Notes: generated by a model not told the origin, from the sequence alone. DNA of 64,000 nucleotides from an uncultured delta proteobacterium (GCA_963760795.1 CAVXEP010000002.1:128001-192000), one strand, 5' to 3'; positions 4,647 to 38,927 are shown, counted from the stretch's first letter. Program-made: numbers and translations.

Positions 4647-4658
4647 TTCCGGCGAATA

Positions 4659-5711: not shown

Positions 5712-5841
5712 GACGGTCTCCTTTCGCTGGCCCGATCATTAAAGTGGTTAACGTCAGCCGACCCCGAGAGCAATCGTCAATCGAATTGGCCCCTTAGTAT
5801 CGCAGCCAATCTGGTTTGTCCATGATCAAGTCTTGCGCAAA

Positions 5842-6297
5842 TCAGGACTCCCCATTGAACGCGATAGTCGTCGCGCCGGTGGGATCAGAAAGACTGGCGA
5901 TGATTTCCGCCGGCACGGCTTGGGCTTTGATCTCTCCCGCACGCTCGGGATGGGGCGCGACCCAAACGCGCTTCTCAAAGCCATCGAGCGCGAGCTCGCC
6001 TGCTTTGACAATCCGATGGCGCACCGTGAAGCTCGAACGGCCCCACTCGCCCACTTCGCTTTCGACGACGATCTCGTCGTCGAAGCGGCAAGGCATGAGG
6101 AAACGCGCTCCAACCTCGACCACCGGCATGCCGACGATGCGGTATTTCTTGCGCATTGCCGAAGGCGTCAAGCCGGTGCGCTCGAAGAGCCAGCCCGTGC
6201 TGCTGTCGAAGATGATCAAATACTGCGGATAAAATACGATGCCGGCTGGATCGCACTGGCCCCACTCGATGCGCAGGGTGCGGCGGTTCACTAGCAT
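5842..6297 (-). CDS. Acyl-CoA thioesterase (4-hydroxybenzoyl-CoA thioesterase-like, hotdog fold)
   Basis: IEWGQCDPAGIVFYPQY motif. Confidence 0.88.
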   Translation of the reverse strand: MLVNRRTLRIEWGQCDPAGIVFYPQYLIIFDSSTGWLFERTGLTPSAMRKKYRIVGMPVVEVGARFLMPCRFDDEIVVESEVGEWGRSSFTVRHRIVKAGELALDGFEKRVWVAPHPERAGEIKAQAVPAEIIASLSDPTGATTIAFNGES

Positions 6298-6377
6298 TGC
6301 CTAGCCCATTTCATATCAGTGAAGCGAACTTTCATTCTCGCGCCTAGCCTGGCCAAGTCCTGAATTCCCAACGAACC

Positions 6378-6455
6378 ACGAGGGCGGTTTTCAAACCCGC
6401 CTTTACAAGTCCCAATCCTTATTTTTCGAACTTTGCGTTCTTTGCGGCCATTCTT
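6378..6455. repeat. Composite REP-like element, copy B
   Basis: GAGGGCGGTTTTCAAACCCGCC...CTTTGCGTTCTTTGCGGCCATTCT. Confidence 0.7.
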
Positions 6456-6466
6456 TGTTTCAGCGC

Positions 6467-8182
6467 TTACGCCGAACAAATAATATTGATAACGGCCTGG
6501 CGTTTTTCGACATTCACCGCTTTGAGGCCGCGCTCGAGGGCCGGTATCACGTCACTCGCCTCGGTGACTTTTTCGCCGTAACCGTCGGCGACCTCCACCG
6601 CTTTTTGGTAATTCGAGATACTGTCTAGGAAAGTGATCGGCTGCTTTTGGCTCTTGGCGGCGTAGCCCTCCTTGGTCATGTCGACGGTGGCGCGGCGCAC
6701 CGCTTGCCAGCGCTGGTTGTTGAACAGCACGGTCAACACCGGCAGTTCCTGCTCGGCGCCGACATAGTGGGCCGAGATCGGATTGCCGAACATGTAGGAG
6801 CCGTCGCCGTGGGTGCCGATCACCAACCGGTCGCGGGCGGCGAGCTTGGCGCCGAGCGCGCAGCCCAAGCCGTGGCCGAGCCCGGAGGCGGCGCCGGCGT
6901 TGAACATGGTCCCCGGTTGGGAGAAGTCAATATACTCCGGCGCCAGGGGCGACTCTTTGATGACGATGGTGTCTTTGGTTTTGATCTCATCGATGCAGTG
7001 GGTGATCCAGGCGGGGTGGATCGGCGACTGGCCTTTGACCTCGGCGAGTTTTTTGCTCCAGCCGTCGCGCAGCGCTTGCCAGCTCAGCGCCAGCGCCGCC
7101 CGGCGCTTGTCGATGCGCAGCTTCGCCCGCGCTTCATGCTCGGCCATGGATTCGTTGAGCACGCGCAATCCCTCGGCGGTGGCGCAGGCGAGCGCGATGT
7201 CGCAGGGATGGCCGCGCACCGGCACGTAGCCGTGCAGCGGATCGGCGCCCATGTGAATGACTTTCGCGTCGTCGCGCACTTTGTCGGTGGCCGGCAACCA
7301 GGGCACGGCGATATCGATGGCGAGGATTACGTCGGCGCTTTGCAACAGCGGTTTTAGCTCGTAGCCCAAATTCATCGGATGGTTGCTGGCTATCGACATG
7401 TAACGGTTGCGATACTGGATCACCGGGATCGCGTAACGTTCGGCGAACTCGCCGAGCGCGGTCCACGCCTTGGGATCCCGGCCGGCGCAATTGGTGATGA
7501 TCAGGGGATTTTCCGCGGCGGCCAAGAGCGCCGCCACTTCTTCGACGGCATCGCCATTGGGAGAAGCCGGCGCAGCGGCATGTTGGCGCGACGGCGTCGT
7601 GTAAGTGAACTCGCTCATCTTATGCGCCAGCACCTCGCGCGGCAGCGATAGATAGACCGGCCCCATGGGCTCGCTCTTGGCGATGCTCAGCGCCCGGTCG
7701 ACCACGGTTTCCAATTGCTGGCCGTTGCGCAGCTCATAGTCCCACTTCACCGACTCGCGCAGCATGCCGGCCTGATCGAACATCTCCTGGGTCCAGTGGA
7801 TGTCCAGGCTGCGGTGTCCGTCCAAGCCGTCTTCGTTGGTCGGCGTGCGCCCGGCGGTAAACAGCATCGGCACATGGCCGCGGGCGGCGTTGAGCAAGCC
7901 GTTCATGCCGTTGGCGGTGCCGACGTTGACGTGGACCATGACCGCCTGCGGTTTACCGGTGACGAGATAGTAACCGATGGCCATGTGCATGGCGGTATTC
8001 TCGTGGGGACAGGTGATCGCCGTCGGCACCCGGGTTTCCAACACCTGCGCCTTGGCCAGCGATTCGACCACCGGCGCGAAATCGGTTCCGGCGTTGGCGA
8101 ACCAGTAATCGATGCCGCGATCGGCGAGCAACGCCAAGTAGGCATCGGAGACGGTAACGTTGTTCAGCGTAATCTTTGCCAT
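6467..8182 (-). CDS. Thiamine pyrophosphate-dependent enzyme (acetolactate synthase large subunit / decarboxylase-like)
   Basis: FANAGTDF, PHENTA (catalytic Glu), GDGSY...FNN TPP-binding motif. Confidence 0.9.
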   Translation of the reverse strand: MAKITLNNVTVSDAYLALLADRGIDYWFANAGTDFAPVVESLAKAQVLETRVPTAITCPHENTAMHMAIGYYLVTGKPQAVMVHVNVGTANGMNGLLNAARGHVPMLFTAGRTPTNEDGLDGHRSLDIHWTQEMFDQAGMLRESVKWDYELRNGQQLETVVDRALSIAKSEPMGPVYLSLPREVLAHKMSEFTYTTPSRQHAAAPASPNGDAVEEVAALLAAAENPLIITNCAGRDPKAWTALGEFAERYAIPVIQYRNRYMSIASNHPMNLGYELKPLLQSADVILAIDIAVPWLPATDKVRDDAKVIHMGADPLHGYVPVRGHPCDIALACATAEGLRVLNESMAEHEARAKLRIDKRRAALALSWQALRDGWSKKLAEVKGQSPIHPAWITHCIDEIKTKDTIVIKESPLAPEYIDFSQPGTMFNAGAASGLGHGLGCALGAKLAARDRLVIGTHGDGSYMFGNPISAHYVGAEQELPVLTVLFNNQRWQAVRRATVDMTKEGYAAKSQKQPITFLDSISNYQKAVEVADGYGEKVTEASDVIPALERGLKAVNVEKRQAVINIICSA

Positions 8183-8387
8183 GAGCTAAGCCCCTTTCCG
8201 GAAATCCTGCTAATTCTTACGGCAGGTGGTGGTCGATTTGCAAAGCTTTTTTTGACGCAAGCAGATTTTTTGGCGAAAACGATAGCGTTGATGGAAGACC
8301 ATGAAAAAGCGACGGAGCCTTCACCGCGTAAAGACTCCGTCGCTCAGCTGTCCGCGGTCTAATTCGCGGAGATTCAATGCCGCCTGG

Positions 8388-10553
8388 TTATTTCGCCAGC
8401 GGATTGGGCCGCAACTGAAATTGCACGGCCATCGGCTTGGCCCCTTTGCCGGTCTCTTTGAACCATGGCACGCGGTCGCCGGTTGCGCTCCACAGTCCGC
8501 GTCCCTTCCAGCCGGCTTTGGGATCGTCGATGCGGCCATCGAATCCTTTGGCGTAAAATCCCAGCGGATAGGGCACGCGCAAGGTGATCATCTTGCCGTC
8601 TTTATAGGCGATCAGGCCGTCGTTTAGATTTCCTGTAGACATCGGCACATCGTCGCCGAGTCCGAAAGTATTATGCTGGTCGACCCAGGTGTAATAACTC
8701 GACTCGGCGCTATTGTCGCCGAGACCCTTGAAGCCAGGACCGGGATATTGATGGAAAGCCCAGCCTTCGGGACAATGATCGCCGGTGGCCTTCGGCCCGT
8801 TGAGCGGACCTTTGCACTTGCGCCGATCGAAGCTACCAAGTGACCGCTCGCCAGCGACACCCAGACGACGCCTTGCTTGTCGATGTCGCCGCCGCGCGGC
8901 CCGAATCCGGGCAGCGGAACGTTGTAGATTTCCGTCAGCGCGGTCTCGTTGGGATTGCTGCCGGGCATCGAGCCGCACCACCGCACCGGGATTGGTGCGC
9001 CAAGTACCCCAGACGGAACCGTCCACCGGATTCGGCATCACAGCGTAAAAACCGGCGACGATGCGCTTATCTTTCTTCGGATCGACCGGCTGCGTCGGCT
9101 CGACATATTCGTCGCGCTTGCCGTTGCCGTTGGTATCGAGAACCATCGGCGTCCAACCCTGCGACTTCACATGATCGCCGGTCTCTTCCCAGATCTTAGT
9201 GTTGATCCAACCAATCACCGAACCACCGCCGCTGGTCCAGAGCGTTTCATTGGCGTCGTAACCGAACTGCAAATGGTGCGTCTGAAAACAGGTGTCGAAG
9301 TAGGTGTACTGCCCGGTCTTGGGATCGAGCATCGTCACATGGCGGTTGGTGCGCTCGATTGGAAAGACCTTCGCCGACGGATGGTCCGAGCCTTTCTTGC
9401 AATAGTCCGGATTGGGCGCACCGCGCACCGTCGCCGCGAACCACACCCGTCCTTTGCGATCGAACATGGCGTTGTGATTGTTCGCCTTGGTGTCCCACAG
9501 CTTCTCGTTACCCCAATAGGGCGACGGCTGCATGGGTCTTTCGCTCGCCGCATGTCCCGGCCCCAGCGCCTCCGGCGTGTTGGCGTCCCGTACTGGCAAC
9601 ACTAGAGTCGTCGCCGTATGGGTTTTCGGATCTAGGACCGGAATCAGGTCGGTGCTGTACTCGGCGGAGCCGTACAGCGGACCATAAGCGTTGACCGTCG
9701 GATAACGGCGGTCGGAAGCGATCAGATCATGGAGATATTTTTTCTCGTTGAGCCAGTCCCATGTCGTCACGACGATGTTGCGCTCCACCCCTTGCGGCCG
9801 CAGCGGTTTAGTATGGGGCAGCTCGCCCTTGGCGACCCGATCGGTCCAGTCCGCGAAATATTCCATCGGCGCGGCGCCAAGCTGAGTGACCAGGGTGTTG
9901 AACATTGACTCGCCCGATTGGCCGGATTGGATGCGGCGGAACCAAGCTTCCACGGAGTTGCTGAACTTGCCCATCGGGTAAGGAACGTTGCTCGGGAAGG
10001 TGCGCGTCGCGATCTGGCCCATCTGGTGACAGCCGACGCAGCCGTTGCTCTTCATCGAGTTGAGCCATTCGGTCTGGGTGATCTTGGCGGGAATGTTACT
10101 CTTGCCGCCGAATTCGCTCTTGTCCGGAATCTTCATCATCGCATACCAATGGATCGCCGGATAAATCTGCGCCGCGGCCGCTTCGTTGGGCGCCACGACA
10201 GCTTTCAAATTAAGAAGCTTGCCAGGCGCGCTTTTCACTTTGGGCGAATCAACCAAGCCGTAACCGCGCACCCAAATGCTGTAACTGGCCTTGGGCAAAT
10301 CCGGCAGCACATAGCGCCCGCCATCGTCGGTCACGACCATTCGGGCGAATCGTGTCGGCAAATCGTTGGTTTCCGCGATCACCCACACTCCCGCTTCCGG
10401 CCCTTTGGCGCTCGTCACCACGCCGCCGATGTCGTCATTATCGATTTGTACGGTGACGCTTTGTTGGCTGCTCAGCTGCACCGGATAGGCACACAGCAAT
10501 GCCGCCAGACCTACCGCCAGAAAACTAAAGTTCGATAACTTCTTTGCTATCAT
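8388..10553 (-). CDS. Secreted carboxypeptidase-regulatory-like / monoheme cytochrome c / beta-propeller protein, paralog 1; two compensating frameshifts at about 8845 and 8965
   Basis: Signal peptide; DDIGGVV..GPEAGVWVIAET; CVGCH; YLHD, NHNAM, THHL; the homologous segment (PGSNPNETALTEIYNVP...GHL) lies in alternate frame 8624..8986. Confidence 0.85.
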   Translation of the reverse strand: MIAKKLSNFSFLAVGLAALLCAYPVQLSSQQSVTVQIDNDDIGGVVTSAKGPEAGVWVIAETNDLPTRFARMVVTDDGGRYVLPDLPKASYSIWVRGYGLVDSPKVKSAPGKLLNLKAVVAPNEAAAAQIYPAIHWYAMMKIPDKSEFGGKSNIPAKITQTEWLNSMKSNGCVGCHQMGQIATRTFPSNVPYPMGKFSNSVEAWFRRIQSGQSGESMFNTLVTQLGAAPMEYFADWTDRVAKGELPHTKPLRPQGVERNIVVTTWDWLNEKKYLHDLIASDRRYPTVNAYGPLYGSAEYSTDLIPVLDPKTHTATTLVLPVRDANTPEALGPGHAASERPMQPSPYWGNEKLWDTKANNHNAMFDRKGRVWFAATVRGAPNPDYCKKGSDHPSAKVFPIERTNRHVTMLDPKTGQYTYFDTCFQTHHLQFGYDANETLWTSGGGSVIGWINTKIWEETGDHVKSQGWTPMVLDTNGNGKRDEYVEPTQPVDPKKDKRIVAGFYAVMPNPVDGSVWGTWRTNPGAVVRLDARQQSQRDRADGNLQRSAARIRAARRRHRQARRRLGVAGERSLGSFDRRKCKGPLNGPKATGDHCPEGWAFHQYPGPGFKGLGDNSAESSYYTWVDQHNTFGLGDDVPMSTGNLNDGLIAYKDGKMITLRVPYPLGFYAKGFDGRIDDPKAGWKGRGLWSATGDRVPWFKETGKGAKPMAVQFQLRPNPLAK

Positions 10554-10660
10554 GTCGTTCTCCTTAGACTCCTATGACTCCATTCGTCTACCTGCGACTC
10601 TTTTTACCTCGAAGCATATCGATTCGCCAGAGAATCGTGCGCGAATTGTAACATCCTACA

Positions 10661-10942
10661 TCAGGGGCTGTACTCGTAAAGCGGCACCTTCGGTAGTGCT
10701 GTTGCCAGGGCTCGAAGAATTCTTTTGCGCACAGCGCTATCGAAATCCCGGCCATAGAAACGGAGGAACAGAGCCTTTAACGCGGCAGCCGATGCCGTTC
10801 GCTCGTCAGCCAGCGCCGATGCTCGAACCATCGCTCGTTCCGATGCGGACATGGAACACCCCATCTTGAGGCGTTCCTCGCCAGAAAGTTTCAGGAGCAT
10901 GTCACAATATTTGCGCTCCATCGGATCCGATGTGACTTTCAT
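10661..10942 (-). CDS. Small helical hypothetical protein
   Basis: 93 aa with GTGAGG RBS-like site; SGEERLKMGCSM...LFLRFYGRDF resembles small proteins I associate with nucleotidyltransferase genes (recollection, unverified). Confidence 0.55.
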   Translation of the reverse strand: MKVTSDPMERKYCDMLLKLSGEERLKMGCSMSASERAMVRASALADERTASAAALKALFLRFYGRDFDSAVRKRILRALATALPKVPLYEYSP

Positions 10943-11081
10943 TGCGCGGCCTCACGGATAGCGAGACTCAACACCCAACCGTTTGACCACCACATATCAC
11001 AGCCGACTTACATTTGCGGACTGCGCCCATTGTACTGCGCGTAGCACTCGACACAGACCGCCGAGTTCCGGCATGCGAACT

Positions 11082-13263
11082 CTATTTCGCCAGCGGGTCG
11101 GGACGCATTTGCCACTTCACGACTTTCGGCCTAGTGCCTTTACCGGTTTCCATGTGGAACGGCACTCTGCTGCCCTGGGTCGACCATAGTCCGCGGCCCT
11201 TCCAGCCCGCCTTGGGATCGTCGATGCGGCCGTCCAACCCCTTGGCGAAAAATCCCATGGGATAAGCAACGCGCAGGGTGACGAACTGGCCGTCGACCAG
11301 CGCCAGCATGGCGTCGTTGGCGTTGCCGGTGGCCACCGGCACATTCTCGCCCAAGCCCAGCGTGTTGAACTGATCCACCCAGACGTAATAGGCGGACTCG
11401 GCGCTGCCGGCATCCGTGCAGGTTTTGAAACTGCGGACCGGGAAACGGATACATCGCCCAGCCTTCAGGACAATGTTGCCCCGTCGCCGTCGGCCCGTTG
11501 AGTGGACCTGTGCACTTGCGGCGGTCGAAGCTCGCCAGATGGCCGCTCGACAGCACCGTCCAGACCACACCGTGACGATCGATATCCATGCCGCGCGGGC
11601 CATAGCCCTGCGCGAGTGGTTTGCCATCCTTCCAAGGTATCTCGTAAACCTCGGCCAGAGCCGTGTGCGGCGGGTTAGACCCGGGACTGAGGCGAACCAC
11701 CTGTCCGGGAAACACCCGGATCGATCCCCACACCGAACCATCGACCGGACTCCAGGCAATACCGTAAAAGCTCGCCTGGAGTTGTTTGTCCTTCGCCGGA
11801 TCGATCAGATCCTTCGGTCCGACATAGTCATCGCGCTTGCCGTTGCCGTTGGTATCGAGGATGAGCGCCGTCCATCCCTGTGACTTCTCCTCGTCATCAG
11901 TCTCTTCCAACATCTTAGTGTTAAGCCAACCGACCACCCCGGCACCGCCGCCGCCACTGGTCCAAAGTGTATTGTTGGCATCCTCGGCGAAGACCAGATG
12001 GTGCGTGCCGTAGCAGGTATTGATGAGTTTAAATTTAGCGCTCTTGGGATCGTACAGAGCCAGCTGGCGTCCGGAATTGTTGACCGCTGTCAGCTTCGCC
12101 GATGGATGCTCCGAGCCCTTCTTGCAGAAGGCTGGATTATCCGACGGGCGGATTCTCGACGTGAACCACACTCGCCCCTTGTCGTCGAGCATCGGGTTGT
12201 GCACCGTGGCCTGACTGTCCCACAGCCGTTCCTCGCCCCAAATCAGCGAGGGCCGATAAATCGGATCTTCCTTCGAGCTTGGCGTCTTGGGATCGCGCAC
12301 CGGCATTTTCATCTCGGTCGCCGTGTTGCGGACGGGATCGAGGACAGGAATCATATCCGTGCTGTACTCGGGCGCGCCGTAGAGCTTGCCGTAGCCGTTG
12401 ATCGTCGGATTGCGCTTGTCGGTGGCGATCTCGTCATGGAGGTAAGCCTTGGCGCTGCTCCATTCCCAGATGCTGACCACCGCGTTGCGCTCGACACCTT
12501 GGGGCCGGGAGGGTTTTGCAGCAGGCAGCTCGCCGGCGGCGATGCGATCGCTCCAGTCGGCAAACAGCAGCAAAGCCCGTTCGCTGTCGAGCCGATTCAT
12601 CTGATTCAGCATGCTCTCGCCGCCCTGTCCGACCATCATGCGTTGCGCCCACACACTCACTGAGGCGCCGGCCTTGTCCCATGCCTTGGAGACGGTGCGC
12701 GTCGCTTTGTTGCCGATTTGGTGGCAGCCGTGACAACCGTTCGATTTAATGTTGTTCAACCATTCGTACTGCGACCGCTGCGTCGTCGCCATGCCGTTGC
12801 CTTGAGGACCGGTGCCGGGGAACAAACTCTTGTCGGGGATCTTGAGCATGGAAAACCAATAGATCGACGGATAGTACTCCGCCGCCGCGGCTGGGCTAGG
12901 CGCCAGCACCGCCCTCAAGTTGAGAATTTTGCCGGGCGCGCTGCGCACCTTGCGCGAATCGACCAGACCGTAGCCGCGCACCCAGACGTTGTAGTTGGCT
13001 TTCGGCAGATCGGGCAGCAGGTAGCGTCCTTGATCGTCGGTCACCACCATCTTGGCGAATCTCGTCGGCAGATCGGTGGTTTCGGCAACCACCCACACTC
13101 CAGCTTCCGGTCCGTGCGAACTGCTGACTACGCCGCCGATATCGTCGTTGTCGATGCGTACGGCGGCGCTTTGTTGGCTGCTCAACTCAACCGGCAACGC
13201 AGCCAGCAAGGCGGCGATAGCGATCGCCAATCCACCGAGGTACACGAAGCATTTAGTCCCCAT
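11082..13263 (-). CDS. Secreted monoheme c / beta-propeller protein, paralog 2; frameshift at about 11415
   Basis: ORFs 11140..13263 and 11082..11759 join; CHGCH; ends KWQMRPDPLAK like the other paralogs. Confidence 0.85.
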
Positions 13264-13354
13264 GATCTGGTTTCCCCCTGGCTAGCCGTATAGGTCTGGA
13301 GCGCCTAAACAGTAACGAATGGCACCGCGATGTGTCAACTAACAATCGCCATAC

Positions 13355-13442
13355 TGTAGTAGCAACGTGATTCTGTCTGGGGTTAACGGCAACGTAATTA
13401 TGTCAGGGTGGAATGATTAAAACCCCGACGATGAAAAACGAA
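13355..13442 (+). mobile_element. Isolated left end of an IS1202/ISNCY-like element plus the first, degenerate transposase codons
   Basis: TGTAGTAGCAAC...GTCAGGGTGGAA matches the reverse complement of 48432-48489 at 55/58 positions; internal GCAAC.T.ATT.TGTC.GGG direct repeat. Confidence 0.75.
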
Positions 13443-13487
13443 TCTATTTCGCTTAGCAGCGCAACCTGGAAGCCGGGATTTTGCCTT

Positions 13488-15687
13488 CTACTTCGCCAGC
13501 GGACCGGGTCGCAGTTGGAACTTCACGACCTTGGGTTTGGTACCCTTGCCGCCTTCGATATGGTTGGTCGCTCTGCCGGCGTAAGCGGACCACAGCCCTT
13601 TGCCTTTCCATCCCGCCTTGGGATTGTCGATACGGCCGTCCATGCCCTTGGCGTGAAAGCCCATCGGGTACGGCACGCGCAGGCTGACGAACTTTCCATC
13701 CACTAATACTTCTAGGGAGTCGGTCGAATTACCCGTTGCAAAGGGCACGTTGCGGCCAAAGCCAAAAGTGTCGTGCTGATCCACCCATGTGTAATAACTC
13801 GCCTGTGCGCTGCCCGAATCGGTGAGGCTTTGAAATTGCGGGCCGGGAAATGGGTAGAGCGTCCAACCCTCGGGACAATGCTTTCCAGTCGCGCTCGGAC
13901 CGTTGAGCGGACCTTTGCATTTGCGGCGGTCGAAGCTCGCCAAATGGCCGCTCGCCAGCGGCACCCAGACGACGCCGTTACGATCGATGTCCATACCGCG
14001 TGGCCCATAGCCATTGACCGGCGCTCTCGGCTCGTCCCACGGCACCTCGAAGATTTCCGTCAGAGCGGTAGTCGATGGATTCTCACCGGGGCTGAGACGC
14101 ACCACGGCGCCGGGAAAGCTCAGCACCGAGCCCCAGATAGAACCGTCGTTGGGATTAAAGCCGATGCCGTAGTAGCCCGCCACGATGCGCTTGTCTTTGG
14201 CCGGATCGACCGGTTGAGTGGGCTCGACATAGTCATCGCGTTTGCCGTTACCGTTAGTGTCCAAGACAAACGGCGTCCAGCCCTGCGATTTCTGCTCGTC
14301 GCCGGTTTCCAGGAACATCTTGGTATTGAGCCAGCCGATGATGCCGCTCGCCGCGCCCCCGCTGGAGAGCCATAACGTATTGTTCGCATCCTCGGCAAAA
14401 ATCAGATGGTGCGTGCTAAAGCAGGTATCGATCAGAGTGAAGTTCTTGGTTCCGCGGATCGTACATGGAAAGATGGCGTCCGGCTCGCTCCATCGGAAAC
14501 ATTTTCGCCGAAGGATGCTCCGAACCTTTTTTGCAGAATGCGGGATTGGCCGGCGGGCGGATTCTCGATGTGAGCCAGACTCTTCCCTTGTCGTCGAACA
14601 TCGGATTGTGCACGGTGGCTTGGCTTTGCCAGATGCGCTCGGTGCCCCAGAACGGTGACGGCGCGAGCATCAGCGCTTCGGTTGTCGAGATGAACATCCG
14701 GTCCGAAGTGTTTGGCTCGCGCACCGGCACTTTGACTTCCGTCGCCACATGACGCACCGGGTCGAGGATCGGCATGAAATCGGTGCTGTCCTCGGGCGAG
14801 CCGTAGATCAAGCCATTGGCGTTGACCGCCGGATTGCGTTTGTCGCTGGCGATCTCATCATGCAAGTAAGCTGTCGGCGTCGCCCAGTCCCACAAAGTGA
14901 TGACAACGTTTCTCTCGACACCCCGCGGCCGCGCCGGTTTCGACGCCGGCAATTCGCCGGCGGCAATCCTATCGGTCCATTCGGCGAACAACTCCAGAGC
15001 CCGCTTGGGTTCGAGATCGTTTAAGTTGCGCATCATCACTTCGCTGGCTTGGCCGGAGAGCACGCGGCGCTGCCACGCGTCCAACGAAGTTTTGAAATCA
15101 CCAAGCTCTTTGCCAATCGTGCGCGTCGACTTGTTGCCCAGTTGGTGGCACGACATGCAACCGTGGCTTTTTACTCCCGCCACCCATTGGCCATGGCTTT
15201 TCAATTTCTCCGGCAAGCCGTTGCCCTTGTCCCCGGTGCCGGGGAACTGGCTCTTGTCGGGAATCTTGAGCATGGAAAACCAATAGATCGCCGGATAGTA
15301 TTCCGCGGCGGCGGCCGGACTCGGTGCGACCAGCGCTTTCAAATTGAGAATTTTCCCCGGCGAAGACTTAACTTTTGGCGCATCGACCAGACCGTAACCG
15401 CGCACCCAAACATCGTAGTTAGCCTTAGGCAAATCGGGAATGACATAGCGGCCGCGGTCGTCGGTGACCACGATCTTGGCGAACTTGGTGGGCAGATCGG
15501 TGGTCTCGGCGATCACCCACACGCCGGCTTCCGGCCCGTTCGCGCTGGTGACCACACCGCCGATGTCGTCGCTGTCGATGCTCAGGGTCGGACCCTGTTG
15601 GCTGCTCAGCCGGTCAGCGGATACTGTCAAAACGACAATGACGACTACGGCGAGCAAGTTCGAACTGGACAGCGTTCTCGCGTTCAT
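13488..15687 (-). CDS. Secreted monoheme c / beta-propeller protein, paralog 3; frameshift at about 14450
   Basis: True start MNARTL at 15687 with GGAGG RBS; CMSCH; joins ORF 13488..14318 ending QLRPGPLAK. Confidence 0.85.
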
Positions 15688-15704
15688 ATCGCCCTCCTGT
15701 CCAC

Positions 15705-16006
15705 CGCCGGCGGTCGATAAGCCGATCAGCTTTCCTTTGAGATCGGCGAACCTTTTAATCTCGGGCCGGACAATCAAGCTGTAAACTGGATTGGTCGTCT
15801 GCGCGACGATGGCGACGGCGTCGGAACCCTTGAGCACGGCTTGAATCAAATAAGGCGTGGCGTTCTTGCCGGCGTCGATCTCGCCCTTGTCGAGCGCCGC
15901 AACGATCCGGTCCGTGCCGCCGGGAATCGGCACCACTTCCAGAGTTAAGCCTTCGCGAACGAAGAACCCCTTGCGCTCAGCAACCGCTAGCGGCAGCAGC
16001 GACAAG
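15705..16006 (-). pseudogene. Internal 302-bp fragment of a NitT/TauT substrate-binding gene, paralogous to 19071-19372
   Basis: Collinear with 19071-19372; protein almost identical (PLAVAERKGFF...LIGLSTAG); no own start or stop. Confidence 0.85.
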
Positions 16007-16099
16007 GTTCGCTCCCGCCGCAGCGAAAGCTTCGGCGATTGCCGCCCCAATCCCGCGGCCGGCACCGGTTACTACGGCGACCTGACCGCTTAAAGCCAT
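16007..16099 (-). pseudogene. Short-chain dehydrogenase (SDR) N-terminal remnant
   Basis: MALSGQVAVVTGAGRGIGAAIAEAFAAAGAN contains the TGxxxGIG Rossmann motif; truncated at the junction with the binding-protein fragment. Confidence 0.8.
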
Positions 16100-16130
16100 C
16101 CCCTTTTCGCTCGCCACGATTTCGTAGTGT

Positions 16131-16976
16131 TCAAGTGACGACGAGTGAATCCGCGGGTTGTCCGATCGCGGCAAGTGCGATGCGCCGCTGCTCTCGAACC
16201 GTAATCACACGGAACGAGCGGGCCGTTTTAACCGCCCAAAAGGCAAGCTCCTGGTTCTCCCGCGTCGTAGAGTATTTCTTGAGGACGTTGATACAATCCA
16301 TCCCATGCGTGAGATCTTTGCTCGCGTGCAACCGCCAGAGCCGGATTGAGCCTTCCGGAACGTCGCAAAGCTGTTCCACAGTGCGCGGTAGCGCCGTCAC
16401 TGAATCTTCTTCCTTTTTCATGTAACCGCGCGCCACAGCGACCCGCGCGGCTTCCAATCCCCCCATGGCCGCGTAGCCGCCTTGCCACGGAAGCGTCCGG
16501 GTCAGGTTGTCGAGCGCATGCATGCAGGCCATTAATACAGGAGTCGGCTGAAAATTCTCCACTTCCTCTCTCGATATGCCAACGACTTCCACATCGCGAT
16601 ACAATACTTCGATATGCGACAATCCTTGGGCATCAGGATCGGCCACTTCTTCATCCATGCAGTCTTTGAGAATCTCTTGGCGCACATCCTGATATGGACA
16701 GCTTGCCGCCACGTTCATCAAGTAACTAGGAAACAGCTTCGCGAAAATCGAATGGAGCATGCGCTCGGTCCCGAAAAAGCGCCGCGCCACCTTAGGATCC
16801 TTGAGCACCACCTCAGGCAACGGCGTATGGTCGCTGCGAAACGCCCGAAACGAGTCCGCGATCGCCTCGAGAAATTTATGTTCAAACTCTTCAGGGGAAA
16901 GCGCGTCTGGAGATCTCTCCAGGGGGTAGAGAAAATAGGTTCTCGTGACCTTGGTGTTACCGGCTGCCAGGCTCAT
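16131..16976 (-). CDS. Heme-oxygenase-like diiron oxidase (HDO; CADD/PqqC/TenA fold)
   Basis: E..H..E..HxxxDxxH ligand set: DEE, SH, GLE, LHASKDLTH. Confidence 0.75.
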   Translation of the reverse strand: MSLAAGNTKVTRTYFLYPLERSPDALSPEEFEHKFLEAIADSFRAFRSDHTPLPEVVLKDPKVARRFFGTERMLHSIFAKLFPSYLMNVAASCPYQDVRQEILKDCMDEEVADPDAQGLSHIEVLYRDVEVVGISREEVENFQPTPVLMACMHALDNLTRTLPWQGGYAAMGGLEAARVAVARGYMKKEEDSVTALPRTVEQLCDVPEGSIRLWRLHASKDLTHGMDCINVLKKYSTTRENQELAFWAVKTARSFRVITVREQRRIALAAIGQPADSLVVT

Positions 16977-17067
16977 AGGGGCCTCCTTTGATTCTTATGT
17001 TGTAGGTATCCACTGCGCAAACATCGTCATTCCTCAACGATACGCGGTAGTACAATCCAGCAAAACG

Positions 17068-18102
17068 TTACTCGGCCAGTGCCATTTTTCTAAATTTCTC
17101 TTGCAGCTCTGCGGCAATGCCGAGCTGTGGCTTTACGAATTTGTCGAGAATTTCATCTGCAGTCATAAAGTCGCCGCCAAGTTGCAACTTGTCCATCGCC
17201 GATTCGTACTCTGGCGATGTCATCGCCCGTTTCACCACGTCTCGGAGCATCTGCAGGACGCCCTTCGGCGTCTCTTCTCTGACCAGCCAGCAAGTCTGCA
17301 AATGCCAAGGCGCCTCGGCAACGCCGTAGAGGATCTTTTGCTCATCGGTGAAATTAAACGCCCTCAACACATAAGGAGCGTCAGGATAGCCTGGAATTTG
17401 GCCCGGAATCAATTTGCCGACAACTTTTAACTTGCCCGCGTCGAGATGCTGCTTTGCCGTCGACAGCAGTTCCGGAGTGGCGTCCGCCTCCCCACGGAGA
17501 ACCGCCAACAGGCGCGCCGTCCCTCCTGGATATCCGCTCACAAGCTTCATCCTTATTCCGATCATGCGCATGATCCGCGCGGGGTTTTCCACAGTACTGC
17601 CCAACGTATCTGCGGACCAAACGATCGGGTTTTTGGCTTGAGACCATTCACTGATGCTCGCGTAAGGAAGCTCCGCGCGCTGCATGATTGGCATGTAATC
17701 GCGCTTGGCTCCGCCAAGAAAATGCCAGCGGCGCACGTCATATTTGATCTCGAGACCCAGGAGCTGATAGAGGGGATAGCCGATGTGGCATTGCAGTATG
17801 GTCAGGTCCGGCCCGGTTTCGCGCATGAACAGATTACCGGCGACTATTCCACCCGCGCCTGCCACGTTTTGGACCGCGATGGTCGGGTTGCCAGGTATAT
17901 ACTTTTGCAACAAAGGAGCCAAAGCGCGGCTCTGCAGATCCACGCCGCCACCAGGAGCAACAGGAACGATGACCCGAACAGTTTTCCCGGCAAACGAGAC
18001 TTGCGCATCAGCAGCCAGCCCGATGCCTGCGAGCAAGGATAAGTAGACCAGAGCAGCAGTGACTCCGATAATCCCGACAAACATTTCTCGTCCGGCTCTC
18101 AT
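17068..18102 (-). CDS. Bug/TctC-family substrate-binding protein
   Basis: Start MRAG at 18102 with GGAGG; FAGKTVRVIVP..PGGGVD, NVAGAGG. Confidence 0.85.
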   Translation of the reverse strand: MRAGREMFVGIIGVTAALVYLSLLAGIGLAADAQVSFAGKTVRVIVPVAPGGGVDLQSRALAPLLQKYIPGNPTIAVQNVAGAGGIVAGNLFMRETGPDLTILQCHIGYPLYQLLGLEIKYDVRRWHFLGGAKRDYMPIMQRAELPYASISEWSQAKNPIVWSADTLGSTVENPARIMRMIGIRMKLVSGYPGGTARLLAVLRGEADATPELLSTAKQHLDAGKLKVVGKLIPGQIPGYPDAPYVLRAFNFTDEQKILYGVAEAPWHLQTCWLVREETPKGVLQMLRDVVKRAMTSPEYESAMDKLQLGGDFMTADEILDKFVKPQLGIAAELQEKFRKMALAE

Positions 18103-18498
18103 GGCGACCTCCATTGTCAAGATTGCATCCGTGGAATGTCCAATCGCCTTGATCGACTCGTATCTCAAGCGTCGCCTCGATGTCAATGTTAATGTTGGTT
18201 CACTGTTAATGATGCGTCACACCAATCCGCGCGCTGGAATTTGCCCTGCGAGTCGCAATTTTTTGCTCAACTCTCAGCTCCCCGCTGATTCACCCCGGCC
18301 TTCTTTACTTCGATCAGGAACAACTATTTCGAGCCTTCCACGCTGAAATGAGCTTGGTCAACAACAAATAAACAATAGACTTTGTATCCCACGGGAACTC
18401 CAATGAATGGACTTCCAGCGATCAGGTTTTAGCAGGTCGCGCCCCCTCAGTCGCTGTTAAACACTTGAGCAGCAGCGCTCGCCGCGACGATGGAGTAA

Positions 18499-19494
18499 TT
18501 ACTGAATCCCGGCAGACTTTAGAAATTGCAGATCGACGAAGCGGCTCGCTGGCGCAACGGGTGAAGGTATGACCGCGGCCTCGCCCATGAGCGAAAGCAC
18601 CCGATCGAATGCACGCAAATCCAACTCACCGCGCCGAGGCAGCACGTTGTTATCGGTCTGCGTGTAAGGCGCGAAGATTTGCCGCGCGGTGTCGTCAGAA
18701 ATTTTTAGCGTATCTTTGACGATGTTCAAAACCTCGTCGTGATTCTTTCCATCGTTGATATATCGGTACGCCGCCGCGAAGCCACGCACCATGCGCACGA
18801 GCACGTCTTTGTTTTTCTCACCCCACGCGCGCCGCGCCATATCGACGTTGAAGATCAGATCCGCCCCCGCTTCATAGGTAAACGCCAAGCGTGGATAGCC
18901 TTGCCGAATCGCTTCCAAATCCTCCGGCTGGCCCATCGGCACGGCGGCGCACTCGCCGGACTTCAAACATTCAAAACGCGCCGACGTGCCGACCACCGGC
19001 TTGGCGCGAAAGTCAGCGGCTTTTAGCCCTTTGCTTGCGAGCAGGCGCACCGCTGACAGCGTAATCGTGTCGCCGGCGGTCGACAATCCGATCAGCTTTC
19101 CTTTGAGATCGGCGAAGCTTTTGATCTCGGGCCTGACGATCAAGCTGTAAACTGGATTGGTCGTCTGCGCGACAATGGCGACGGCGTCGGAACCCTTGAG
19201 CACCGCTTGAATCAGATAAGGCGTGGCGTTCTTGCCGGCGTCGATTTCGCCCTTATCGAGCGCCGCGACGATCCGGTCCGTGCCGCCGGGAATCGGCACC
19301 ACTTCCAAGTTAAGCCCTTCTCGGGTGAAGAAACCCTTGCGCTCGGCGACGGCTAGCGGAAACGACGACAAGCTGCCGGCGGACGTGGCGTTCTGACCGT
19401 AGCGCAGCGTGATTAGTTCGGCAGCGGTTGCGCCATTCGCAAGCCAAGCGCAGAGCAGTGCGCCGGCGATAAAGAACATTCGATCATTCATCAC
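18499..19494 (-). CDS. ABC transporter substrate-binding protein, NitT/TauT (SsuA/THI5) family
   Basis: Signal peptide; VAERKGFF.REGL, DLKGKLIG. Confidence 0.88.
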   Translation of the reverse strand: MMNDRMFFIAGALLCAWLANGATAAELITLRYGQNATSAGSLSSFPLAVAERKGFFTREGLNLEVVPIPGGTDRIVAALDKGEIDAGKNATPYLIQAVLKGSDAVAIVAQTTNPVYSLIVRPEIKSFADLKGKLIGLSTAGDTITLSAVRLLASKGLKAADFRAKPVVGTSARFECLKSGECAAVPMGQPEDLEAIRQGYPRLAFTYEAGADLIFNVDMARRAWGEKNKDVLVRMVRGFAAAYRYINDGKNHDEVLNIVKDTLKISDDTARQIFAPYTQTDNNVLPRRGELDLRAFDRVLSLMGEAAVIPSPVAPASRFVDLQFLKSAGIQ

Positions 19495-19501
19495 GCCTCA
19501 A

Positions 19502-21674
19502 TCACTTCGCCAAAGGATCGGGCCGGAGCTGAAACTTCACCACCTTGGGCTTTGTGCCTTTGCCGCCCTCCATGTGGAACGGCGTGCGCGTTCCTGTCGT
19601 CGCCCACAGCCCCTTGCCCTTCCAGCCGGTCTTTGGATTATCGATCCGTCCGTCCATCCATTTGGCGTAGAAGCCGAGCGGATAGGGCACGCGCAGATTG
19701 ACCATCTTGCCGTCCACCAACGCGATCAGCGAATCGTTCAAGTTGCCGGTGGCGATCGGCACGTCCTTGCCCAAGCCGAAGGTGTCGAACTGATCGACCC
19801 AAGTATAGTAACTCGACTCGGCGCTGCCAGTTGGTTCGTTCAAGCTCTCGAAGTTCGGTCCCGGCAGTGTGTGCAGCGTCCAGCCTTCGGCGCAGTGCTT
19901 ACCGGTGGCGTTGGGGCCATTAAGCGGGCCTTTGCACTTGCGCCGGTCGAAGCTCGCCAGATGGCCGCTCGATAGCGACGACCAGACCACGCCGCTGCGA
20001 TCGATATCCATGCCGCGGATACCGTAGGCGCCTTGGGTGTCGAACGGAACTTCAAAGTACTCCGCGAGCGCGGTCTCTGACGGATTAGGACCCGGATCGA
20101 GCCGGACGATGGCGCTGGGAAATCCCTGCGTCGATCCCCACACCGTACCGTCGACGGGACTGACGGCGATACCGTAGAAAGCCGCCGCCATGCGCTTGTC
20201 TTTGGCCGGATCGACCGCTTGATTGGGTTCGACCCATTCGTCGCGCTTGCCGTTGCCGTTGGTATCGAGCACGATCGGCGTCCAGCCTTGCGACTTCTGT
20301 TCGTCGCCGGTGGCTTCGAACATTTTTCGGTTCAACCAGCCGACCACGCCGCTAGCCGGACCGCCGGCGCTGGTCCACAGCGTATGATTGGCGTCCTCGG
20401 CGAAAACCAAATGATGCGTCGAAAAGCAGGTGCTGATCAGCGTGAACTTTTTGCTCTTGGGATCGTACATCGACAGATGGCGGTTAGCGCTGTTGATCGG
20501 AAAGACTTTCGCCGAGGGGTGGTCCGAACCTTTTTTGCAAAAGTCCGGATTGGCCGGCGGACGCACTCGCGCGGTGAACCAAACACGCCCCTGTTCATCC
20601 ATCATCGGATTATGCTGGTTCGATTGGCTGTCCCAGATCGCCTCCGCGCCCCAGTAAGGCGACGGCGTGAGCGGATCGGTCTTGGCCGACGGCGTATTGG
20701 GATCGCGCACCGGATGTTTGATTTCGTATGCGCGATGGCGCACCGGGTCCAATACCGGCACGAGATCGGTGCTTAGCTCCGTCGAACCATAGAGCGGACC
20801 GTTGGCATTGACCGTCGGCTTGCGCTTGTCGGTGGCAATTTCGTCGTGCAGATAAGCCTTGGCATTGCTCCAATCCCACACCGTAACGACGATGTTACGC
20901 TCTGCCCCTTGCGGCCGCGGCGGCTTAGCCTTGGGCAGTTGGCCGGCGGCGATTCGATCGGTCCAGTCAGCGAAAAGCGCGAGGGCGCGTTTGGAATCTA
21001 ATCTATCGATCGCATTGAGCATGCTGGTCATCGCCTGACCGGAGACGATGCGCCGCTGCCAGGCCTCGGTGGAATTTTTGAATTCGCCCAAATTTTTTGG
21101 GATGGTCTGGGTCGCCTTGTTGCCCATCTGGTGGCAAGTGTTGCAACCGTTGGTTTTAACCACGTCCAACCACTGCGCTTGATGCTGCAGCTTTTCCGGC
21201 ATGCCGTTACCTTTTTCACCGGTGCCGGGAAACTCGCTCTTGTCGGGAATTTTCAACATCGAGTACCAGTAGATCGCCGGATAGTACTGCGCCGCGGCGC
21301 CATCGCTCGGCGCCGTCACCGCTTTTAGATTTAGCGTCTTGCCCGCCGTAGCGCGCACCTTGGCGGAATCGATCAAGCCATAGCCGCGCACCCAGATGTC
21401 ATAGTTTGCCTTGGGCAGATCGGGAATCAGATAGCGCCCTTGATCGTCGGTGACGACGATCTTGGCGAACTTGGTCGGCAGGTTAGTCGTCTCGGCGATC
21501 ACCCACACACCAGCCTCCGGCCCGTTAGCGCCGTTGACCACGCCGCCGATGTCATCGCCATCGATGCGCACCACCGCGCCTTGTTGACTGCTCAGTTGAT
21601 CCGGGCAGCAGCCCAATCAAGCCACTGAGCGCGGTCACCAACACGCCAAAGCCAAGCAACTTTGAACGCTTCAT
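19502..21674 (-). CDS. Secreted monoheme c / beta-propeller protein, paralog 4; frameshift at the end of the signal peptide (about 21604)
   Basis: ATG 21674 with AAGGAG RBS, MKRSKLLGFGVLVTAL...; CNTCH; ends QLRPDPLAK. Confidence 0.85.
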
Positions 21675-21798
21675 AAATGACTCCTTTTAAATGAACCAGT
21701 ACGGCAAGCGAATGGAGAGTAACCGAAATCGAAATCGCACGTCAATCGAAACTGAACAACATTGAACATTGGAGCAACAGCAACTAGCCCAGTCCGGT

Positions 21799-21885
21799 CC
21801 CTCCCTTTCGTAAAGGGAGGTTAGGAGGGATTTTTCAAACTACGAAAAACAAGATCTCCATTAGTCCCCGTTTTTTAAAGGGGAA
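21799..21885. repeat. CCCTTT..AAAGGG palindromic REP-like element
   Basis: CCCTCCCTTTCGTAAAGGGAGGGTTAGGAGGGATTT; related copy at 34981-35015. Confidence 0.6.
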
Positions 21886-21950
21886 TGAATGCGTGGCCTC
21901 AGTCGCTGTTCGGACATGACCTGCGACGTGCAACAGCAGTATCACGTCGA

Positions 21951-22238
21951 TCAGATCGTCTCCGCGACATAAAGCCCGCCGTGGCTCTTCTTGGTTTGCA
22001 GTCCCTCCACCGCGGCGCGAAAGGATTTGTAAGAGTCGGTGCCGCGCCAGCGTGCCAGATGCTCCTTGCTTTCCCATAACAAAATGACGATCACCGCCGA
22101 CGGATCGTCTTCGCTGCATAGGATATGTCCGCCGGTCGAACCCGCCGATTTACAGCCCTGGACCGCTTCGCGATAAATCTTGACGTACTCGGCCCGCTTG
22201 GCCGGGTCCACCGTCTGAAAGCGCATTTCGTAAACCAT
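21951..22238 (-). CDS. Antibiotic biosynthesis monooxygenase (ABM)-like ferredoxin-fold protein
   Basis: 95 aa from MVYE; DDPSAVIVILLWESKEHL..WRG. Confidence 0.75.
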   Translation of the reverse strand: MVYEMRFQTVDPAKRAEYVKIYREAVQGCKSAGSTGGHILCSEDDPSAVIVILLWESKEHLARWRGTDSYKSFRAAVEGLQTKKSHGGLYVAETI

Positions 22239-22295
22239 AGTTTGCCACCTTTTTGCCGTCTGTGAGTTTTTCACCAAATGAGAAACAACTTCCTG

Positions 22296-22532
22296 ACCAC
22301 GAAGAACACGAAGCGCACGAAGTTCGGAGTTTTAATTATCCGAAACCTTCCTGTCCATCTGATTACTATCCTTTATAATTTGCGCGGCCTGCGCAAATTG
22401 TCTGAGCGCCATACCCAAGAGGGCGGGTTTCAAACCCGCCCCTACCAATCCCAATTTTGCGTCCCTTGCGTTCTTTGCGGCCATTCTTCCATTCGGTTGC
22501 AGCGGTGCCGCGCTAGGATCTTCGTGGTGAAA
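22296..22532. repeat. Nested REP-like cluster (ACCACGAAG triplet, GTAG-type palindrome, TTTGCG triplet), includes copy C
   Basis: ACCACGAAGAACACGAAGCGCACGAAG ... GGGCGGGTTTCAAACCCGCCCCTAC ... CTTCGTGGT. Confidence 0.7.
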
Positions 22533-22538: not shown

Positions 22539-24014
22539 TTACTTGGTCGGTTCCGTAGCGCCAGCTTTCTCCAACCGCAGCGTCAAGCCATTTTTCTCTA
22601 TGTAAACCTGGCGGTATTGTTTGCGCTTGGCGAGTTCGGAGATCAGCAGCGCCAGCGGCTGCGAGATCACGCTATAGTCCTTCGGCGCGCCGGCGGCGAG
22701 CATGGCATCGACGGCGGGATCGCCGGCGATGACGCGCAGGACCAGTTCTTCGTCAGAAACATTCGAGCCGCCGACTTTGCGCCGCACTTCTGCCAGCGAC
22801 ATTTCCGGCACCGACCAGTTCGCCCACTCTTTGGCGCGCGGCCGGCTGAGAATCTTGTCCTTGACGCCGGCGTCCATCACCGTCGGCGCTTCCTTGCCCC
22901 AGTAACCGAGGGCGTACTGAATCGCCTGGTCGGTGACCTCTTTGTAGCGCTCGCCGGTGATCACGTTGATCGCCGCCTGACTGCCAACGAATTGCGCCAG
23001 CGGCGTCACCATGATCGGATAACCGAACTCGGCTCGCACCCTGCCGCATTCCTCGAGCGTTTCCTCGATCCGGTTCGCCATTCCCATCTTGCCCAACTGA
23101 AAACGCAAGTTAGAAATCATGCCGCCGGGCACTTGGTGCAGGTACTGCGCATGATCGTATTCGCGCTGCGCGCCCACCGGATGGCCCTCCAGTTTGGCGA
23201 TTGAAGTGAAATGCCTCTCCACCGGCTTGACCGCTTCCAAGTCAACTTGCGGTTTGTAGCCCAACGCTTGAGCGTTGCGTGCGACGTTGAAGATCGATGG
23301 CTGTCCCGAACCGTTGGCCAATGGCGGAATACCGGTGTGAAACGTCTCGACACCGAGCTTCATCGCCTCTAAATAATTGAACGGCGCCATGCCGTTGTTG
23401 CAGTGGGCGTGAAACTCCAACGGGACATCGCCGATGTTTTGCTGGATCAATGGAATCAGCGTGCGCGTCCGATCCGGTGTCAGCAAGCCGGCGACGTCCT
23501 TGAAACAGATCCGGTAAGGCTTGATCGCCGCCGCCTGGCGCGCCCGCGTGGCGAAATATTCATCGGTGTGGCGCGGGGACACGGAATAGATGATATTGAC
23601 GATCACCTCCATGCCGAGTTTTTGCAGAGCAGCGATCTCGATGGCAGCGGCATCGTAATCGTTCCACGGATCGGACGTGCGCGTCAGTGTGATTCCATGC
23701 GCCGCCACTCGCTCGATCATCAACAGCCGAACCGAACGTGGGATTTTTTCGAACCCCGACGCCAGTCCGCCGTGGTAACGCAGCCGCGTGCGGTGAAACT
23801 TTTTGGCCCCCTCGCCCATCCATACCCACGGATTTTCTTTGTGCTCTTTGACGTACTTGATGTAACCGGCAAAGCCGAAGAACTCCATCGACTCAAAACC
23901 GCACTGGTCCATCTGTTCGGCGATCGCCAGCATGGCGCCGGTACGCATGCCCAACGCCCACAAGCTCAACGACCCGTCGCGCACGGTGGTATCGACAAAT
24001 TTGATTTGCTTCAT
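22539..24014 (-). CDS. Pyruvate/oxaloacetate carboxyltransferase domain protein (OadA/PycB/5S-like), no biotinyl domain
   Basis: DTTVRDG, KDVAG, HAH, HQVPGGMISN, GYPIMVTP.AQ; no MKM biotin motif. Confidence 0.85.
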   Translation of the reverse strand: MKQIKFVDTTVRDGSLSLWALGMRTGAMLAIAEQMDQCGFESMEFFGFAGYIKYVKEHKENPWVWMGEGAKKFHRTRLRYHGGLASGFEKIPRSVRLLMIERVAAHGITLTRTSDPWNDYDAAAIEIAALQKLGMEVIVNIIYSVSPRHTDEYFATRARQAAAIKPYRICFKDVAGLLTPDRTRTLIPLIQQNIGDVPLEFHAHCNNGMAPFNYLEAMKLGVETFHTGIPPLANGSGQPSIFNVARNAQALGYKPQVDLEAVKPVERHFTSIAKLEGHPVGAQREYDHAQYLHQVPGGMISNLRFQLGKMGMANRIEETLEECGRVRAEFGYPIMVTPLAQFVGSQAAINVITGERYKEVTDQAIQYALGYWGKEAPTVMDAGVKDKILSRPRAKEWANWSVPEMSLAEVRRKVGGSNVSDEELVLRVIAGDPAVDAMLAAGAPKDYSVISQPLALLISELAKRKQYRQVYIEKNGLTLRLEKAGATEPTK

Positions 24015-24237
24015 CTTGTTATCGCTTCGTTCCAATCGGTGAGTATCGTTTAGAACCGGCGAAATTCTAACTCGACGCTATAACGGTATATCGATTAGCA
24101 CAGGTGTAACTTTTTAGTCGAGCATGTTTTGCCGATTGCGAATGTCTACCCGTCGGCTTCTGTCTAGGGATTGCGAATAATTTTCCTGAGACTGTCCCGC
24201 CTGTGGGACTTTAACCTCACCAGCGCCACCGACAGGA

Positions 24238-38919: not shown

Positions 38920-38927
38920 AGACCCCG

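Follow-up and report, generated by a model that had tools for sequence, protein, structure and literature searches.

Four anciently diverged genes from an uncultured delta proteobacterium belong to a large uncharacterised family of predicted periplasmic proteins joining a CxxCH domain to a Vgb-type beta-propeller

A stretch of DNA of 64,000 nucleotides (nt) from an uncultured delta proteobacterium (GCA_963760795.1, CAVXEP010000002.1:128001-192000; hereafter the window, in whose numbering positions are given) harbors an array of four genes, termed g1-g4, between positions 8388 and 21674. Judged from their sequences, g1-g4 are intact, anciently diverged paralogues of one very large and uncharacterised family of Sec-exported periplasmic proteins, in which a beta-sandwich, a helical domain with a single CxxCH haem-attachment motif and a seven-bladed beta-propeller are joined in one chain. 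With regard to function, roughly even confidence is placed in the proposal that they are stand-alone periplasmic haem-c redox enzymes, in which haem c would serve as an electron relay.

The listing of open reading frames (ORFs) and their translations confirmed exactly the four co-oriented genes of about 700 amino acids (aa) that a preliminary description of the window had reported. All four lie on the minus strand and encode paralogues of ~720 aa, namely g1 at 8388..10553 (~721 aa), g2 at 11082..13263 (~726 aa when the frame is followed), g3 at 13488..15687 (~732 aa, with an ATG start at 15687 that opens MNARTL) and g4 at 19502..21674 (~723 aa). Every copy possesses an ATG start with a purine-rich stretch before it that resembles a ribosome-binding site. 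The signal peptides, as read from the translations, end in (Q/E/R/Q)LSSQQ and contain no twin-arginine motif, each protein carries one CxxCH (CVGCH in g1, CHGCH in g2, CMSCH in g3 and CNTCH in g4), and the C termini are RPNPLAK, RPDPLAK, RPGPLAK and RPDPLAK in the same order, so that the signatures named in the preliminary description were all recovered. The copies share 56-69% pairwise identity in protein and 66-72% in DNA, and the concern that they might collapse on reassembly does not apply because sequences so far apart cannot be merged. No fifth copy beyond g1-g4 was found in the 6.58-Mb assembly (35 contigs, 88.9% complete).

A structural model of the 704-aa g4 ORF, generated by AlphaFold2 from a 62-sequence alignment, reached a predicted local distance difference test (pLDDT) of 94.2 and a predicted template modelling (pTM) score of 0.93, and divided the protein into three parts, all encoded on the minus strand. 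The N-terminal part is a beta-sandwich resembling CarboxypepD_reg (21317..21550; residues 23-100), the strands of which are visible in the model. It is followed by a helical, putatively haem-c-binding domain (20897..21316; residues 101-240), whose CxxCH at 21131-21145 comprises C158, C161 and H162, and by a seven-bladed beta-propeller of the Vgb/NHL type (19523..20896; residues 241-698) with ~170 residues of insertions; a near-invariant tail, Q-x-R-P-x-P-L-A, ends the protein. The layout previously described for these proteins, a secreted beta-sandwich with one conserved CxxCH and a propeller, was thereby upheld by both sequence and model. The beta-sandwich scores 24-26 bits in the window proteins (24.3 in g4) against PF13620 (CarboxypepD_reg), which is below the cut-off of 32.3; many database homologues carry a precomputed match to this family, and a group of ~550-aa cousins, which align with the window proteins over the beta-sandwich, score 54-65 bits.

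The propeller was found to be closest to virginiamycin B lyase (Vgb), which was ranked first by both Foldseek and VIA-align; against 2z2n_A the match extends over 288 of 293 residues with Z 24.4, a root-mean-square deviation (rmsd) of 2.4 and 11% identity. The best matches are seven-bladed and aligned end to end, and the four Vgb entries (Z 24.1-24.5) are followed by YncE (21.0) and by WD40 propellers (~20.5), which places the lyase ~3.5 Z units above generic seven-bladed propellers. With 458 residues as compared with ~290 in Vgb, the window propeller contains ~170 inserted residues. Many near-invariant polar residues, including H257-D258, C397/H401/H402, W445/D451, Y603/D608 and R642/Y645/R657/D659, are situated within the inner blade strands or immediately behind them, and 301 of the 704 columns are identical across the four orthologous groups.

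In the preliminary description, the architecture had been likened to that of cytochrome cd1 and the quinohaemoproteins. This analogy stands as far as the layout is concerned, since cd1 and the quinohaemoprotein alcohol dehydrogenases likewise have a periplasmic c-type haem domain fused to a beta-propeller, in which the haem acts in logic as a relay. The propeller type does not conform to it. Cytochrome cd1 and the quinohaemoprotein dehydrogenases possess eight-bladed propellers with haem d1 or pyrroloquinoline quinone (PQQ) and class I cytochrome c domains, whereas the window propeller has seven blades and is of the Vgb type, the window proteins gave no match to the PQQ or cd1 families of Pfam, and their haem domain has no recognisable cytochrome fold.

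Conservation of the CxxCH motif proved to be high throughout the family. C158, C161 and H162 are kept in 272 of 279, 275 of 283 and 277 of 283 aligned homologues (97-98%), and among 150 diverse representatives of 50%-identity clusters in 62 of 68, 77 of 83 and 78 of 83 (91-94%). Met199 is the only conserved methionine or histidine besides the motif, with at least 90% retention in alignments of 24 and of 46 sequences, and is probably the sixth haem ligand. The genome also encodes haem-attachment proteins of the CcmC/CcmF type and CcmE. In general, apo-cytochromes c cross the inner membrane through Sec and acquire their haem in the periplasm. Given the predicted Sec export, the lack of a twin-arginine motif and putative haem attachment in the periplasm, only cofactors that can be inserted in that compartment would be available, and a cofactor of the propeller would thus be limited to metal ions or PQQ. 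With respect to the latter, no PqqC above the cut-off was found in the 89%-complete genome (best TIGR02111 score 91.5 bits against 240), a result which does not establish that the gene is missing, the other pqq genes not having been searched for.

The relationship to Vgb is bridged by the ~550-aa cousins, which in 8-10 of 79 surveyed loci are encoded no more than 7 kb from a family member. One CxxCH was present in all eight cousins examined; the two that were scanned match CarboxypepD_reg, and one of them also exceeds the cut-off of Vgb_lyase (PF24684) with 119 bits. When the profile of the window family (A1) was compared with that of the cousins (A3), all three domains aligned with an hhalign probability of 99.9% and an E-value of 1e-32; the cousins match Vgb (2qc5) by sequence with an E-value of 2e-49, and the window family's own profile matches the same entry with 2e-4. 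On the strength of these three alignments, the window proteins are assigned to a divergent, insertion-rich branch of a haem-bearing Vgb-propeller superfamily, as opposed to the Vgb lyases themselves; none of five window translations matches PF24684 at E <= 0.1. The cousins, which are equally uncharacterised, show the same three-domain order and are homologous throughout; they differ in being shorter, without the long propeller insertions and the QxRPxPLA tail, and in reaching the Pfam cut-offs of Vgb_lyase and CarboxypepD_reg; matches to SGL (lactonase) were obtained as well. Elsewhere in the genome, a single shorter protein positive for Vgb_lyase was recorded outside the window (G000:C16:50877-51596, locus L091; 131.6 bits for PF24684).

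Vgb itself is a cytoplasmic, Mg-dependent C-O lyase. Its four entries (2z2n, 2z2o, 2z2p and 2qc5) share with the window proteins a seven-bladed propeller of the same sub-type and are aligned over nearly the whole chain (288-293 residues, rmsd 2.4-2.5), at 11-13% identity. In contrast to this ~300-aa single domain, the window proteins are exported and bear two additional N-terminal domains, one of them with CxxCH, as well as the propeller insertions. The 'PH' histidine of Vgb blade 7, which we take to be His270, corresponds through Tyr483 of A3 to the conserved Tyr603 of the family, and the blade-6 'PH' histidine corresponds through Arg440 to Arg534; these transitive profile alignments are indicative only, as the blades repeat and the register is of low resolution. 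With tyrosine and arginine at these places, the catalytic histidine set of Vgb appears not to be kept, a conclusion that is likewise indicative. An H270A variant of Vgb was deposited as catalytically inactive (title of 2z2p), and the catalytic and Mg2+ residues are located in blades 6-7 according to PMC8916777. H257 of the family takes the same position in the blade motif as the Vgb catalytic histidines, albeit in another blade, an arrangement that suggests an active face comparable to those of Vgb and CylK. CylK, as presented in PMC8916777, is built from a Vgb-like seven-bladed propeller fused to an N-terminal domain, with the active site between that domain and the top face of the propeller and with Ca2+ sites in loops. 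The window proteins resemble it in this fusion and contain a DTNGNGKRD loop that looks like a Ca2+ site; CylK differs by its other N-terminal domain and by the absence of haem, and it was not among the best 50 structural matches of the window propeller.

The family to which g1-g4 belong is very large. All 8,000 scored candidates matched g4, the best 120 at 74-100% identity, and this search sets a lower bound of more than 8,000 clusters at 90% identity. An exhaustive HMMER search of 1.84 billion representatives at 50% identity returned 6,359 proteins at E <= 1e-3 and 1,559 at E <= 1e-30, which ranks the family, with at least 6,359 such clusters, among the larger protein families without known function. 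A scan of one genome per species matched at least 623 stretches, at least 619 of which encode a relative. The 79 loci kept for analysis are all from metagenome-assembled genomes (MAGs) of soil and groundwater, are 53-88% identical to g4 and span Binatia, Acidobacteriota, Alpha- and Betaproteobacteria, Gemmatimonadota, Rokubacteria, Chloroflexota, Phycisphaerae and others, with 55-70% identity between phyla. A search seeded with a Xanthobacteraceae member again gave only metagenome or MAG sources among the best 120, and every named source among the matches listed is of this kind. The distribution is patchy, because a match was present in 15 of 18 other genomes of the genus (a tally including the unpublished G004) and in 2 of 151 genomes, this one included, from an even draw of the phylum, a figure which, with this query, reflects patchiness and not absence.

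Until now, the family seems to be devoid of a characterised member, as the preliminary description had proposed. Names given to the best 120 database matches are 'hypothetical' or 'carboxypeptidase regulatory-like domain-containing protein', and apart from the sub-threshold CarboxypepD_reg in Pfam, no NCBIfam match was obtained for the propeller or haem parts of the window proteins. When one protein was compared by sequence with the PDB, only chance matches (E > 0.8) resulted, and a full-text literature search found no description of this architecture. The ESM Atlas returned only unnamed or 'carboxypeptidase regulatory' clusters, and its nearest named clusters, PQQ/SGL (0.85) and SGL/Vgb_lyase (0.79), both fall below 0.9 and are leads only.

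For the redox enzyme, the following mechanism can be envisaged. After export by Sec, one haem c would be covalently attached to the helical domain in the periplasm, with Met199 as its probable sixth ligand, while the propeller would bind and convert a small substrate, perhaps by means of a metal ion acquired in that compartment. The haem would then pass electrons between the propeller site and soluble cytochromes or oxidases of the respiratory chain, in whichever direction the reaction might run, and the four copies would be isoenzymes that differ in substrate or in the conditions under which they act. Action without a dedicated partner is suggested by the neighbourhood survey, in which 881 ORFs from the 79 loci were clustered and no real neighbour family reached more than 10 loci, together with the single copy retained by three relatives (G006, G007 and G014). 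The commonest neighbours were the ~550-aa cousins (10 loci), an unnamed ~330-aa family (9), NMT1 binding proteins (8) and short-chain dehydrogenases/reductases (SDRs; 7). The largest apparent neighbour cluster (20 loci) consisted of antisense ORFs inside the family gene itself and was discarded.

Several observations weigh against a redox role. A redox cofactor or metal site in the propeller is hypothetical, with the conserved H257, D258, C360, C397, H401 and H402 as candidate residues that might lie together, and the known relatives of the propeller (Vgb, and CylK by structure) are not redox enzymes. The helical domain, modelled alone (146 aa, pLDDT 89.1), showed no solved structural relative among 48,161 chains (best Z 3.7; best Foldseek E-value 1.1) and no Pfam cytochrome family at E <= 0.1. 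It therefore does not qualify, in the model, as a recognisable class I cytochrome c, although a new fold is not thereby proven. The argument for haem binding is therefore the CxxCH motif, and the 'cytochrome c' label of the preliminary description is likewise read from this motif. Across the 79 loci, there was also no conserved electron-transfer partner, regulator or transporter that would hint at a substrate. Finally, a strict test yielded five columns that cleanly separate the four paralogue groups, all of them in propeller loops, which lend thin support to different specificities and are too few to locate a pocket.

Should the proteins indeed be redox enzymes wired into respiration, they would represent an unrecognised energy or detoxification trait of dominant uncultured soil bacteria, and the high-confidence model and intact orthologues such as P0001 make expression and assay directly feasible. 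A more specific and clearly more tentative extension of this proposal is that the family constitutes a new class of periplasmic haem enzyme, in which a c-type haem domain, with a fold absent from solved structures, would be paired with a metal- or histidine-based centre inside the Vgb-type propeller. Such an enzyme might oxidise a small substrate found throughout soils, for instance a hydroquinone, an inorganic ion or a trace compound, and deliver the electrons into aerobic respiration, with the four paralogue groups serving different substrates. If so, the retention and exchange of the gene among dominant uncultured soil phyla, at 55-70% identity, would be accounted for, and the haem domain would add a new c-type cytochrome fold.

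Two other functional explanations are regarded as unlikely. One holds that the Vgb-type propeller is a lyase, lactonase or hydrolase acting on a periplasmic depsipeptide, lactone or ester, and that the haem is structural or a sensor of redox state or gas. That the closest solved structures are streptogramin B lyases, that the cousins match the SGL and Vgb_lyase families, and that Vgb and CylK perform non-redox chemistry (PMC8916777) all speak for such an enzyme. It is disfavoured by Tyr603 and Arg534 at the positions of Vgb His270 and of the blade-6 histidine in the transitive alignment, and by the near-universal retention of the predicted covalent haem among the aligned homologues and the diverse representatives alike, which would be costly if the haem were purely structural.

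The other explanation, which is also given a low probability, describes a non-catalytic periplasmic electron carrier or docking protein, whose haem shuttles electrons while the propeller and beta-sandwich only bind a partner, such as a mineral, a polymer or a component of the outer membrane or cell surface. Both propellers and CarboxypepD_reg domains commonly serve as binding modules, and a propeller whose cofactor site is hypothetical would fit this role. PQQ dehydrogenases, enzymes that depend on cytochrome c as acceptor, moreover occur at distances of up to 7 kb in a few loci: a neighbour family of 8 proteins in 7 of the 79 loci was identified as such by Pfam in the two members scanned, although some entries of this family coincide in part with the target gene and could be fragments of it. 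A mere carrier is hard to reconcile with a propeller that is very highly conserved from end to end, numerous polar residues in the loops that follow the inner strands included, and with the finding that no partner gene is conserved. The stand-alone redox enzyme is thus retained as the preferred reading.

The history of the paralogues bears on a further proposal of the preliminary description, namely that the four proteins are subunits of one hetero-oligomeric complex. A FastTree phylogeny of 96 sequences, rooted on distant members, resolved g1-g4 into four separate groups with SH-like support of 96-100, each accompanied by orthologues from related genomes: g1 by those of G006, G007, G014, G017b and G011c, g2 by L030 (support 100), g3 by G017a, G011a and L046 (support 100), and g4 by G017c, G011b and P0001. 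Since every paralogue group contains such orthologues, the duplications that gave rise to g1-g4 are placed before the genus. The expansion invoked in the preliminary description is accordingly not a recent local one, the four old groups being common to related genomes in differing order. Phyla are intermixed in the tree.

In related genomes, the array is located between a carboxyltransferase and a thiamine-diphosphate enzyme and holds one to three copies. In the window, the HMGL-like/PYC_OADA carboxyltransferase (22539..24035, minus strand) forms the upstream flank and the thiamine-diphosphate enzyme (6467..8182, minus strand) the downstream flank, both conserved within the genus (loci L007 and L009). 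Arrays of two to four copies recur in the relatives G011, G017, G003 and G018, and in other lineages four copies are found at L027 and three at L014. This recurrence, and the fact that the genes lie together, would be expected of a hetero-oligomer. Nevertheless, G006, G007 and G014, which are 98-99% complete, keep one g1-type copy only, which disfavours an obligate complex; the order g4-g3-g2-g1 of the window is replaced by g3-g1-g4 types in G017, no g2-type copy was seen in G011 or G017, and the window copies are set apart by spacers of 224 and 528 nt and by unrelated genes. A hetero-oligomer is consequently considered quite improbable.

The independent four-copy array of L027, an alphaproteobacterial Micropepsaceae MAG (2131-14012), groups with a single further Micropepsaceae sequence in a clade restricted to that lineage, and contains two adjacent sister copies; unlike the old paralogues in the window, it represents a lineage-specific expansion. 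Two loci labelled 'Verrucomicrobiia bacterium SMAG_U11567' (L012 and L020) carry copies that are nearly identical to those of G011 and fall within the Binatia groups of the tree, and their bin label is probably wrong.

The intactness of g1-g4 requires comment, as every copy is frame-disrupted in this assembly; the frameshifts implied in the preliminary description are real here and amount to 1-nt changes at five sites. Compensating errors at ~8966-8970 and ~8835-8837 in g1, an insertion and a deletion, throw ~45 codons into the wrong frame, and single extra bases occur at ~11419 in g2, at ~14450 in g3 and at ~21602 in g4, the last within the signal peptide; g4 is otherwise 98% identical to the intact database protein P0001. 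Contigs assembled from the short reads of four soil metagenome runs in three studies were aligned on 8300-21800, and they omit one base at 8970 (2 runs), 11419 (2 runs), 14450 (4 of 4 runs) and 21602 (1 run). For the fifth site, the second one in g1 (~8835), no omitted base was among the listed differences; in one X6 contig, the stretch 8797-9168 is covered with two gaps. In the RNA runs X16-X18, a fraction of only 0.07 of sampled words was present.

Frame changes likewise interrupt further genes of the window, including a metallo-beta-lactamase (28704-29613), an AMP-binding/PP-binding enzyme (53253-55182) and a KS-AT-KR-ACP polyketide synthase (PKS) distributed over four ORFs (55200-59886), and the short-read contigs also differ by indels of 1-2 nt at 15942-17007. 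Small indel errors seem to be frequent in this assembly. Because the short-read contigs omit the base at four of five sites and other window genes are broken in the same manner, the frame breaks in g1-g4 are attributed to assembly errors, or at the least intact alleles are taken to exist in near-identical populations. No in-frame stop was found in g1-g4 once the frame was followed. Ratios of nonsynonymous to synonymous divergence (dN/dS) against orthologues were 0.10-0.13 for g1, 0.08 for g2, 0.07 for g3 and 0.09 for g4, values which are approximate, and to that extent temper the argument, as dS (0.9-1.4) is near saturation; they point to purifying selection on all four copies. Decaying pseudogenes or an artefactual array, for which at least one frame disruption in each copy might be adduced, are therefore very improbable in view of the short-read contigs, the equally split neighbours, the absence of stops in each segment, the low dN/dS, the 66-72% DNA identity and the intact orthologous arrays of relatives, which are assembled into many contigs.

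The array is interspersed with other genes, as the preliminary description had correctly noted for the substrate-binding proteins and a diiron-type oxidase, here a Haem_oxygenas_2 gene. Between g3 and g4 lie the genes for this 'iron-containing redox enzyme' and for two binding proteins, one of the TctC and one of the NMT1 type. The NMT1/SsuA-like periplasmic binding protein (18499..19494, minus strand) begins 7 nt past the stop codon of g4, and the two genes are possibly co-transcribed; the window contains five full-length NMT1 genes, and with so many the adjacency may be due to chance. A truncated NMT1 remnant of 303 nt (15705..16006, minus strand) lies directly upstream of g3, is joined in frame to the g3 ORF in this assembly and shares 91.4% DNA identity with 19071-19372, and is interpreted as the record of a recent rearrangement within the array. 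A scan of 8000-22400 counted 6 promoter-like sites where 5.2 were expected and 14 terminator-like sites where 17.1 were expected, and was uninformative.

Further features of the window lie outside the array. Genes for Haem_oxygenas_2 or TENA/PQQC-like 'iron-containing redox enzymes' occur three times in the 64 kb, at 16131-16976 inside the array, at 26342-27043 and at 44853-45611. A run of four periplasmic binding-protein genes (34008-38318) precedes a molybdenum hydroxylase cluster on the minus strand (38422-44721), which encodes large subunits of 747 and 760 aa along with one FAD and one 2Fe-2S subunit. On the plus strand, the split AMP-binding and PKS genes mentioned above constitute a small hybrid locus (53253-59886), in which an acyl-AMP ligase/ACP is combined with a type I PKS module (KS, AT, KR and ACP). 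This locus, situated between two DUF1800/DUF1501 gene pairs (48613-52396 and 60766-63902), is possibly devoted to a lipid or natural product.

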